From Escherichia coli (GTDB lineage: Bacteria; Pseudomonadota; Gammaproteobacteria; Enterobacterales; Enterobacteriaceae): 64,000 bases of DNA. The position numbers were made by a program. The stretch is taken from the NCBI RefSeq assembly GCF_050320075.1, contig NZ_CP190018.1; one strand, written 5' to 3'. Of this stretch, positions 48,001 through 51,000 are shown in pieces (position 1 is the stretch's first letter; each line of letters begins with the position of its first letter).

Positions 48001-51000
48001 CCACGCGTACGAGGCGTAATTTTAGCGCGAATATCATCAAGGTCCGGGAACCAGTCAGAGGATTCATCGCAAAGATAATGCACCGCTTTACCGCTGGAGA
48101 GCGAAACCGCCGCGGTCCATAGTGGGTAATCAGGTGCAGGAACCAACATTTCGTCCCCGCTGTTCAGCAATGCCTGCATTGCCTGAACGATAAGCTCCGA
48201 TACACCATTGCCGATGTAAATATCTTCCACGGTAACATCACGCATGCCACGAGCCTGGTAGTGCTGCATGATGGCTTTACGCGCGGAGTAAAGCCCTTTG
48301 GAATCGCAATACCCTTGAGCGGTAGGCAGGTTGCGAATCACGTCAACGAGGATTTCATCTGGCGCGTCAAAACCGAATGGTGCAGGATTGCCGATGTTCA
48401 GTTTCAGTACCTTGTTACCTTCTTCTTCCAGGCGTTTTGCTTCTTTCAGCACCGGACCACGGATGTCGTAACAGACATTCTCTAATTTGCTGGATTTTTC
48501 AATGGGGGACATGAATCTTGACCTTTTTTGCTGTTATCGCCACTCCCTGCCGTGGAAGTCAGCTTAGAACAATGTACTCCCCCAGGACGGCGTTTTGAAG
48601 GTCTGCAGAATAAGATTTTGCCAGAGGGGAAGGCTTGATTGTGCTGTTAATAACTTAATAATGGCAAAATAATGAGGTGTATATGCTTAATAATTAATGT
48701 TATGTAGTGAATTGTTCTGATTCTTAATTGTGAGTGTGGTTTTTTTATCTGTAAGATAATTGTTTGAAAATGCCTCGTTTAAGAATTCACTAATGAATCG
48801 TGATGATGATATTTCCGCATTACGGAGAGTTTAACAGCGTGATGATTTCCGAGGTGTCGTAATGGGTGCAAGGTGTGAAACTATTGTTAAGCGGGATTAA
48901 TGTATGAGGATGATGCTAATTAATTATTATTTAATATTCAAAAAGGTTTTGTTGTGCTTATTAATAATAGAAGATTACTTTGCCTAACATAACATAACTT
49001 TGCATCAGATAATTCGCAATGACCCTTATAAATAAAAGGTTTTTGGGGTAAAATGCTCGCATAAATGACGGATCCCTGCTCTTGATGCCGCCTCACCATT
49101 GCTGTTTGTACGTGTTCGCGTATGACCAGCGATGCTGCACGAGAGTGGAACAAGGACTCACATTTACATTTATACAAACACGCGCATGTCATAAATACAA
49201 AAGAGTGAGTAACTTAATAGATATGCGATTCCTGAAGATATATTCTGTGATCCACTTCAGGCATTATAACGGAACAATGTGAGTCGCTTTTTTAGTGCAA
49301 CTCATATGCATTTTTACTTTCGTCCGGGTTCCGGATGAAACTGCCAGGGAGGCACATTACAAATGGAACTGCTTGTTTGTGTGTGCACAGCATTAACCAG
49401 CTCAGTATGAGCCGCCAGTAAGTGATAATATATGATAAGTGCAAATCGTCCGATAATTAACCTCGACCTCGATCTGCTGAGAACATTTGTTGCTGTTGCC
49501 GATCTGAACACTTTTGCTGCCGCAGCTGCCGCTGTGTGTCGTACTCAGTCCGCCGTAAGTCAGCAAATGCAGCGTCTGGAACAACTCGTTGGGAAAGAAC
49601 TGTTCGCTCGTCACGGTCGCAACAAACTGTTAACTGAACATGGCATTCAACTTCTTGGTTACGCCAGGAAAATCCTGCGTTTTAATGATGAGGCCTGCTC
49701 ATCATTAATGTTCAGTAATCTTCAGGGCGTGTTAACTATCGGAGCTTCAGATGAATCTGCCGATACGATCTTACCTTTCCTGTTAAATCGCGTGAGTTCG
49801 GTTTATCCGAAACTAGCGCTGGATGTCCGCGTTAAACGTAATGCCTATATGGCAGAAATGCTGGAATCCCAGGAAGTGGATTTGATGGTAACCACCCATC
49901 GTCCTTCAACGTTTAAGGCATTGAACCTGCGTACCTCGCCAACACACTGGTACTGCGCAGCGGAATACGTATTGCAAAAAGGCGAGCCGATCCCTCTTGT
50001 ATTGCTGGATGATCCTAGCCCGTTTCGCGATATGGTGCTGGCGACGCTTAATAAAGCAGATATTCCATGGCGACTGGCTTATGTCGCCTCGACGCTTCCG
50101 GCAGTTCGTGCGGCAGTAAAAGCCGGTCTTGGCGTGACGGCAAGGCCGGTCGAGATGATGAGTCCAGACCTGCGTGTGCTGAGTGGAGTAGATGGCTTAC
50201 CGCCGCTACCCGATACCGAATATTTGCTGTGCTATGACCCGTCCAGTAATAATGAGCTGGCCCAGGTGATCTATCAGGCGATGGAGAGCTACCATAATCC
50301 GTGGCAATACAGCCCAATGTCTGCTCCGGAAGGCGATGACTCATTGTTGATTGAAAGGGATATCGAGTAATCGACGGACCATAGATAATTTCTGAGACAA
50401 TAGTGTAAAAACGAGCCGCTGGGGGTGTTTTAAACCCCAGCGGCTTTTTTTTAGTAAAAAGCCTTCCTCGTATCGTGCAGAACATACAAAACTGTTCATT
50501 TTTCAATCACCAGAGATTCACGTCCCGAACGCACAAATAATCGCCTGAAAAAAATCACCTGCTACAATGATGTTAAAAAATACGTAAATTTGTTGCTGCG
50601 TTTTTGTTATGGAATGACAAAAGCGTGTCACAGATCAAGAAAATACTCTCTTTTGGGGGGAGGAATCGACACAAATTCCTGTCAAAATAGACCCGTATTT
50701 TTTCCATTGCTTCACAACGGACACGATTCAACAACATCTAATTATCCTGGAGTCGTCAAGGATCTGGGGTGAAAGGGCATTAAATGCTAATGGTGTTGAT
50801 ATTATGTAAACTAATGTGAAGAAACTTTTGTTAAAGTTGACAAAAGGTTATAGAAAGGAGTAAAAGACCACATCAATTAGCTGTATAAAAGAATTTCTAC
50901 AGTGATTGTAAGGTTTTTTTTATTCCTCCCCATGAATCGATGTGGCGTCCATCTGCCGTGAAGAGCAGTGAATCTGGCGCTACTTTTGATGAGTAAGCAA

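Follow-up and report, generated by a model that had tools for sequence, protein, structure and literature searches.

Why should 919 bp without a credible coding sequence separate two divergently transcribed genes of Escherichia coli? The question is raised by alaA and lrhA in the DNA analysed here, 64,000 nucleotides of contig NZ_CP190018.1 (assembly GCF_050320075.1), which is called the window throughout. A sequence-only reading of this locus had drawn attention to the length of the gap, its AT-richness and a short direct repeat, and had suggested that the region could host a long lrhA leader, multiple regulator binding sites, or an unannotated small RNA or small protein. We consider it very probable that the two divergent genes share the gap as their control region and that its size is accounted for by published features.

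The proposed arrangement can be followed along the sequence. About 40% of the gap (49061-49431) is transcribed as the lrhA leader of 371 nt. Its final ~90 nt, which are conserved, would form a docking platform, with CsrA on its two GGA motifs and the Hfq-dependent UhpU, ArcZ and RprA pairing with the leader end to give less LrhA synthesis. UhpU would pair beside the ribosome-binding site and ArcZ and RprA probably farther upstream; McaS would bind too, and Hfq would destabilise the lrhA transcript. The sequence upstream of 49061 would contain an lrhA promoter that is weak and depends on activators, together with a conserved island of AT-rich DNA, and the opposite end (48513-48623) would provide alaA with its promoter and a short leader. 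Between these blocks, ~250 bp would be an AT-rich spacer, which evolves freely in sequence and houses a chance repeat.

The length and start of the lrhA untranslated region (UTR), the UhpU pairing, the binding of CsrA and Hfq and the regulator associations are literature results mapped onto the window sequence. Hence the finding counts as already known, since the central idea of the sequence-only reading was right in part and had been published. The addition of the present analysis is the four-block conservation map, together with a coordinate map for one strain.

Dimensions and conservation of the intergenic region

The genes alaA (47295-48512, minus strand) and lrhA (49432-50370, plus strand) leave exactly 48513-49431 between their starts, in agreement with the 919 bp claimed earlier. 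In a crude ORF-based gene model of the 64-kb window the gap ranks first among the non-coding gaps, which bears out its description as unusually long; the next largest in this model is the 629-bp lrhA-nuoA gap, and the median is 49.5 bp. The AT-richness is likewise real, with a GC content of 0.31-0.36 over 48600-49100 against ~0.50 in alaA and lrhA, and of 25-35% in the centre of the gap. K-12 MG1655 has an alaA-lrhA gap of equal length (919 bp) with no annotation between both genes, and 28 positions of the gap, with 0 indels, distinguish it from the window. K-12 coordinates are converted as 2456073 minus the window position p.

Eighty Enterobacteriaceae loci encoding LrhA were fetched, 78 of which carry a divergent alaA upstream. 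The alignment consists of 79 gaps, namely that of the window and those of these 78 genomes; the loci of the Photorhabdus, Xenorhabdus, Dickeya and Yersinia orthologues are not among them. Gene arrangement is identical over the 79 sequences and gap length ranges from 764 to 1140 bp (median ~943). The alignment resolves four conserved blocks with variable sequence between them. Block 1 (48519-48623) contains the predicted alaA promoter and leader, Block 2 (48873-48971) is the AT-rich island that precedes the lrhA start site by ~90-190 bp, Block 3 (49003-49054) comprises the lrhA core promoter and the element CATCAGATAATTCGCA, and Block 4 (49341-49431) is the promoter-distal end of the leader, which adjoins the lrhA start codon.

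The variable AT-rich spacer between Blocks 1 and 2 (48624-48872, GC 0.34) is poorly conserved in sequence and keeps its length, with a median of 247 bp and an interquartile range of 243-251. Similarly, the island has a median length of 99 bp, and the interval from the island to the lrhA -10 element has a median of 83 bp. No function is assigned to the first, distal 255 nt of the lrhA leader or to the ~250-bp spacer, and yet both keep their length between genera; these lengths may be under a constraint beyond the features listed here.

The lrhA leader and its RNA-level regulators

The suggestion of a long lrhA leader was correct and already published. The 5' UTR is 371 nt long (PMC10578931), which places it at 49061-49431 on the plus strand. 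In the same study, primer SM079 fuses the +1 of PBAD to ATAAATGACGGATCCCTGCT (PMC10578931). This junction sequence equals window 49061-49080, and therefore the lrhA start site is the A at 49061. The minimum free energy of the UTR is -108.9 kcal/mol, a fold somewhat more stable than that of shuffled sequences (z-score -2.18). Conservation is unevenly distributed, being 0.18-0.46 over the first 255 nt and 0.62-0.68 over the last ~90 nt, and it is within these last ~90 nt that the sites of CsrA and UhpU and the predicted sites of ArcZ and RprA all lie.

Evidence for Hfq at this leader comes from several sources. Hfq-bound RNAs of ~150 and ~350 nt were recovered from "ig-lrhA-alaA" and read as leader fragments (Bilusic et al., PMC4152368). 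Full-length lrhA mRNA is raised in an hfq mutant (PMC4152368), and binding of the leader by Hfq in vivo is supported by co-immunoprecipitation and RIL-seq (PMC4152368, PMC10578931). Among the small RNAs, UhpU represses lrhA via base pairing, with a compensatory mutation as proof; ArcZ represses an lrhA-lacZ fusion, and RprA also represses lrhA, while McaS forms many lrhA chimeras and leaves the reporter unaffected (PMC10578931). The lrhA mRNA was recovered in an RprA pull-down as well (PMC5861431).

The small RNA sites were placed in the window by simple seed helices, because RNAduplex on long inputs returned unrealistic extended duplexes and missed the effect of the M1 mutation. The UhpU pairing site CGCCAGU (49413-49419, plus strand), complementary to UhpU ACUGGUG, lies beside the ribosome-binding region, just upstream of the conserved TAAGTGA and the start codon. 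The published lrhA-M1 mutation corresponds to C to G at 49416 (gBlock GCCGCGAGT, wild type GCCGCCAGT), and this position ruled out another candidate UhpU site at AACUGCU (49367-49373). In the 79-sequence alignment the UhpU site is restricted to Escherichia, Citrobacter and Salmonella.

From complementarity to their seeds, we infer coordinates for the other small RNAs. ArcZ would pair at 49342-49352 (UGCCAGGGAGG against the ArcZ seed UUUCCCUGGUG), and RprA and McaS at 49381-49392 (GUGUGCACAGCA against UGCUGUGUGUA(C)), both on the plus strand. The predicted helices have 11-12 consecutive pairs, of which 3-4 are G-U, and the CACAGC core of the predicted RprA/McaS site is conserved at 0.8-0.9. The predicted ArcZ site overlaps the upstream of the two GGA motifs in the leader.

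These GGA motifs, AGGGA at 49346-49350 and AUGGA at 49363-49367, stand inside an in vivo CsrA crosslink peak at 49316-49402 on the plus strand (CLIP-seq peak_226, K-12 2406671-2406757; Potts et al. 2017, PMC5694010), close enough together for a single CsrA dimer to reach both, and both are conserved. The A-N-GGA of the downstream motif is kept in 73 of the 79 species with N free to vary (U 32, A 21, G 16, C 4), which matches the pattern expected of a CsrA site, and the GGA of the upstream motif is kept in 67 of 79. Ribosome footprints and RNA of lrhA are both increased in a csrA mutant (PMC5694010).

RNAalifold found no consensus structure for the last 120 nt of the leader. A small hairpin at 49400-49412 retains its pairing in 75% of cells, with covariation not above that of controls. 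A conserved upstream ORF was sought in the lrhA leader and none was found, the ORF at 49335-49421 being missing in most species.

The lrhA promoter and the upstream island

The lrhA core promoter occupies 49026-49061 on the plus strand, with a weak -35 element TTATAA (49026-49031), a -10 element TAAAAT (49049-49054) and the start A at 49061. The -10 element is conserved as TAAAAT or TAAGAT, 7 nt upstream of the start site. Farther upstream, at -58 to -43 of the start site, is the conserved element CATCAGATAATTCGCA (49003-49018, plus strand). A possible second promoter, CTAACA-18-GATAAT (48984-49013), was rejected; its -10-like part is conserved but its -35 part is not, and for this reason the string is read as a regulator site. 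Shimada et al. (PMC3946193) give CTGCCA-16-TATGAT as the lrhA promoter, a string that could not be located in the gap or near it.

The conserved AT-rich island (48873-48971, GC 0.25) spans -188 to -90 from the lrhA start site and holds candidate upstream regulator sites. It contains direct repeats phased at 11 and 10/11 bp, TGTGAA (48874), TGTTAA (48885) and ATTAA (48896), followed by AATTAATTATTATTTAATATT and TTATTAATAATAG. The distance from TGTTAAG to the lrhA -10 element is 163-164 bp in 25 of the 36 genomes in which both elements could be located. The distance from the alaA -10 element to TGTTAAG, by comparison, is scattered over 306-318 bp without helical phasing.

The presence of multiple regulator sites, as anticipated by the sequence-only reading, agrees with published work, which has Lrp, OmpR, CpxR, H-NS and LrhA acting on the DNA and CsrA, Hfq, UhpU, ArcZ, RprA and McaS on the RNA. 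For example, Lrp and, by ChIP, OmpR have been reported to be bound at the intergenic region or the lrhA promoter, CpxR binds the lrhA promoter in EHEC (reviewed in PMC9387321), and lrhA is autoregulated by LrhA. Expression of lrhA is also repressed by H-NS (PMC12968389), alongside which the gap shows a GC content of 0.25-0.35. The gap contains no site for the CpxR consensus GTAAA-N5-GTAAA at up to 2 mismatches and none for the RcsAB box consensus at up to 3. OmpR, CpxR, Lrp, LrhA and H-NS are the published candidates for binding at the island. One open reading of the phased TGTKAA repeats is that the island might be a shared docking site for OmpR-family response regulators. The TGTTA-like repeats and their 11-bp spacing also suggested ArcA as a binder of the island. 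This idea remains weak, since Park et al. 2013 list in their supplements nothing beyond a changed expression of yfbQ (alaA), with no ChIP peak at the gap.

The alaA promoter and leader hairpin

Block 1, read on the alaA strand, runs from GCAAAATCTT through TTCAAA and a variable spacer of 17 bp to GAGTACATT and then, after ~12 nt, through a hairpin to the Shine-Dalgarno sequence. The predicted alaA core promoter (48571-48623, minus strand) would consist of a -35 element TTCAAA (48599-48594) and a -10 element TACATT (48576-48571) separated by the 17-bp spacer, with the conserved upstream element GCAAAATCTT at 48605-48623. Both hexamers are nearly invariant over the 79 sequences and the intervening spacer varies. 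The position of the conserved -10 element would put the alaA start site near 48564, which predicts an alaA 5' leader of ~52 nt (48513-48564, minus strand) with the Shine-Dalgarno sequence AAGG and a conservation of 0.69-0.83. A more distal alaA promoter has been proposed from RpoD genomic SELEX (Shimada et al. 2014, PMC3946193). This candidate (48699-48727, minus strand) reads TTAAGA-17-TATAAC in K-12, with CATAAC in the window strain, and is situated in poorly conserved sequence (0.39-0.42).

The hairpin in the alaA leader, ACUUCC-ACGGCA-GGGAGU (48542-48559, minus strand; motif CUUCCACGGCAGG), lies ~5 nt from the predicted alaA 5' end. Its loop and upper stem are invariant over 43 distinct sequences, and in Buttiauxella, Cedecea and related genera its lower stem shows covariation. 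The pair 31-48 is AU in 23, GC in 10 and GU in 7. Pairing is kept in 81.5% of cells, against 40-57% when the partner columns are slid, and the hairpin is contained in the minimum-free-energy fold. A palindrome acting at the DNA level is less likely, because the lower stem preserves complementarity and not sequence. The hairpin has no Rfam match.

This invariant hairpin may be a new item. That it is an undescribed cis-acting RNA element (48559-48542, loop ACGGCA) is a tentative proposal which we regard as somewhat unlikely. As such an element it could act by shielding the 5' end of the mRNA or by binding a protein, and, if this were true, it could set mRNA stability for the main alanine-synthesising transaminase across Enterobacteriaceae.

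Other explanations for the gap

An unannotated gene for an independent small RNA or a small protein could also occupy a gap of this size. Several short ORFs are present, the island at 48873-48971 is conserved with no assigned product, and the ~150- and ~350-nt RNAs that co-purify with Hfq do come from the gap. These RNAs, however, map to the lrhA leader and were interpreted as its fragments by the authors who found them. The small-RNA suggestion stands only in a weak sense, as Hfq-bound leader RNA, and no independent gene was found, either with its own promoter and terminator or as a family match: there is no intrinsic-terminator-like site within the gap, and an Rfam scan of the window and of seven orthologous loci returned no match at the gathering threshold. 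Within the gap a single match reached E <= 1, a weak minus-strand hit to STnc170 at 48761-48836. It scored 20 bits where the gathering score is 80, and it was dismissed as it was not reproduced in Salmonella. The small-protein suggestion is unsupported too. The predicted 13-codon ORF near 48794 does exist, with its ATG at 48793, spanning 48793-48834 and overlapping the first copy of the direct repeat, but it is not conserved; it and the ORFs at 48904-48987 (27 aa) and 49335-49421 do not persist beyond Escherichia or a few genera. The 27-aa ORF has its start codon in the variable part of the island, and the other two ORFs are missing in most species. The earlier statement that 48513-49431 has no credible ORF thus agrees with the orthologous regions, across which none is conserved. 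We regard an independent gene inside the gap as very improbable beside the shared control region.

The direct repeat calls for separate treatment. It was confirmed where it had been described, as an exact match of CGTGATGATGATATTTCCG at 48799-48817 and of CGTGATGATTTCCG at 48838-48851 (plus strand), and consists of 9 and 5 matched bases flanking a 5-nt indel. If its copies bound a transcription factor controlling lrhA or alaA in E. coli, they would be suitably placed, between both promoters and at -262 to -210 relative to the start of lrhA transcription. The repeat is the top-scoring local gapped repeat of the gap, a short and partly conserved motif TTTCG-A-AATACTGA overlaps the end of copy 1, and an equal or higher score occurred in only 3.3% of 300 dinucleotide-preserving shuffles, although this statistic was picked after the repeat had been seen. 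Against such a role, copy 1 carries two substitutions in K-12 (48801 and 48817), and in the 79-sequence Enterobacteriaceae set the repeat is missing from E. albertii, from every other genus and from locus L002, which is labelled E. coli and yet has a LrhA identity of only 95%. The repeat also coincides with the least conserved 80 bp of the gap (identity 0.24-0.40, many alignment gaps). The copies are thus neither kept across strains and species, as iteron-like transcription-factor sites would be, nor unlikely by chance. A function as regulator site is highly unlikely, and the repeat is most likely a coincidental match confined to some lineages of E. coli.

It is still less probable, to the point of being hardly credible, that the AT-rich centre is what remains of DNA that was mobile or had been acquired horizontally. 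Its GC content of 0.25-0.35, the repression of lrhA by H-NS (PMC12968389) and an IS1 insertion in one laboratory strain would fit such an origin. The IS1 transposase is the only annotation under the gap in the E. coli genomes, found in one listed genome that has the insertion. Nevertheless, of 5426 complete E. coli genomes 5425 have the gap itself as a single copy, with an identity of 95-99.9%, a median of 1 and a maximum of 2 places per genome and 0 on plasmids, and it is therefore no dispersed repeat or mobile element of the REP, MITE or IS-remnant kind, which would be multi-copy. Moreover, the equal arrangement, similar segment lengths and common conserved blocks in 79 species of many genera imply that the gap is ancestral to the family. 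A control region shared by alaA and lrhA is the reading retained.

Relation to known control regions

LrhA represses the flagellar master regulator flhDC, affects fimbriae and RpoS and, according to a 2026 paper, has an effect on CRISPR-Cas. The lrhA control region is hence a convergence point of many signals, and this convergence is already documented. The direct repeat can be discarded, and the alaA leader hairpin and the upstream island are the sole items of remaining interest.

One close likeness is with csgD-csgB. Shimada et al. named the "920 bp-long lrhA-alaA" spacer in one sentence with csgD-csgB and nanC-fimB, among long spacers with multiple regulators (PMC3946193). Like lrhA-alaA, the csgD-csgB spacer (755 bp) is a long, AT-rich divergent region upstream of a lifestyle master regulator and is bound by many transcription factors; likewise, the csgD 5' UTR is a long leader served by several Hfq-dependent small RNAs, including RprA and McaS. 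The two differ in that only one gene of the alaA-lrhA pair is a regulator, alaA encoding a metabolic enzyme, and in that the lrhA leader is longer (371 nt).

The leaders of flhDC and rpoS resemble that of lrhA as UTRs of several hundred nucleotides which integrate ArcZ, RprA and McaS with Hfq. CsrA is also involved at the flhDC leader, and it stabilises flhDC mRNA. In contrast, CsrA appears to repress lrhA (PMC5694010). The lrhA gene is a member of the same motility and stress network (PMC10578931). All small RNAs tested on it repress or do nothing (PMC10578931), whereas rpoS is activated.

Also close to the lrhA leader are those of its orthologues hexA (Photorhabdus, Xenorhabdus), pecT (Dickeya) and rovM (Yersinia). 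ArcZ pairs with the leaders of pecT (-84 to -58) and hexA. The predicted E. coli ArcZ site, at -90 to -80, would be in a comparable position, judged from positions alone.

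Conserved and variable segments of the alaA-lrhA gap

Upstream of lrhA, the divergent alaA-lrhA gap (48513-49431) contains a conserved AT-rich island (48873-48971, 25% GC) that carries phased TGTGAA, TGTTAA, and ATTAA repeats. These repeats lie at a fixed distance of 163-164 bp from the lrhA -10 element (49049-49054), and the layout of the island looks like that of a putative OmpR-family response-regulator site. The segments at 48624-48872, 48972-49054, and 49061-49315 are nearly randomised in sequence between genera but have kept their lengths. For example, the variable spacer at 48624-48872 measures 249 bp in the window against a median of 247 bp (interquartile range 243-251). 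Among the E. coli genomes matching the alaA-lrhA region, 42 of 5425 showed no single match spanning at least 80% of it. An IS1 element sits within the gap of one matching genome, that of the laboratory strain KMS2001 (NZ_CP079992.1).

Strain differences from K-12

Position 49369 is C in the window strain and T in K-12 and most Enterobacteriaceae (GGAACUG vs GGAAUUG), and this substitution falls within the most conserved block of the lrhA leader, two bases 3' of a CsrA GGA motif. A distal alaA promoter candidate, with its -10 at 48699-48704, has been proposed (Shimada et al.); K-12 has TATAAC at this -10, whereas the window strain, with G at 48704, has CATAAC. Should the distal promoter be in use, its strength may vary among strains.

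Hairpins and neighbouring features

The alaA leader carries, close to its predicted 5' end, an invariant minus-strand hairpin with the loop ACGGCA (48542-48559), which is kept in all 43 distinct aligned sequences, with one pair covarying. The hairpin corresponded to no Rfam family and was not found described in the searchable literature. The sole terminator-like hairpin of the scan (48461-48480, plus strand) is internal to the coding region of alaA and antisense to that gene, and this single hit is at chance level (0.8 expected).

A second CsrA CLIP peak (peak_225; Potts et al., 2017) at 50325-50428 covers the lrhA 3' end and the beginning of the lrhA-nuoA gap. This gap (50371-50999, 629 bp) ranks second by size in the window.
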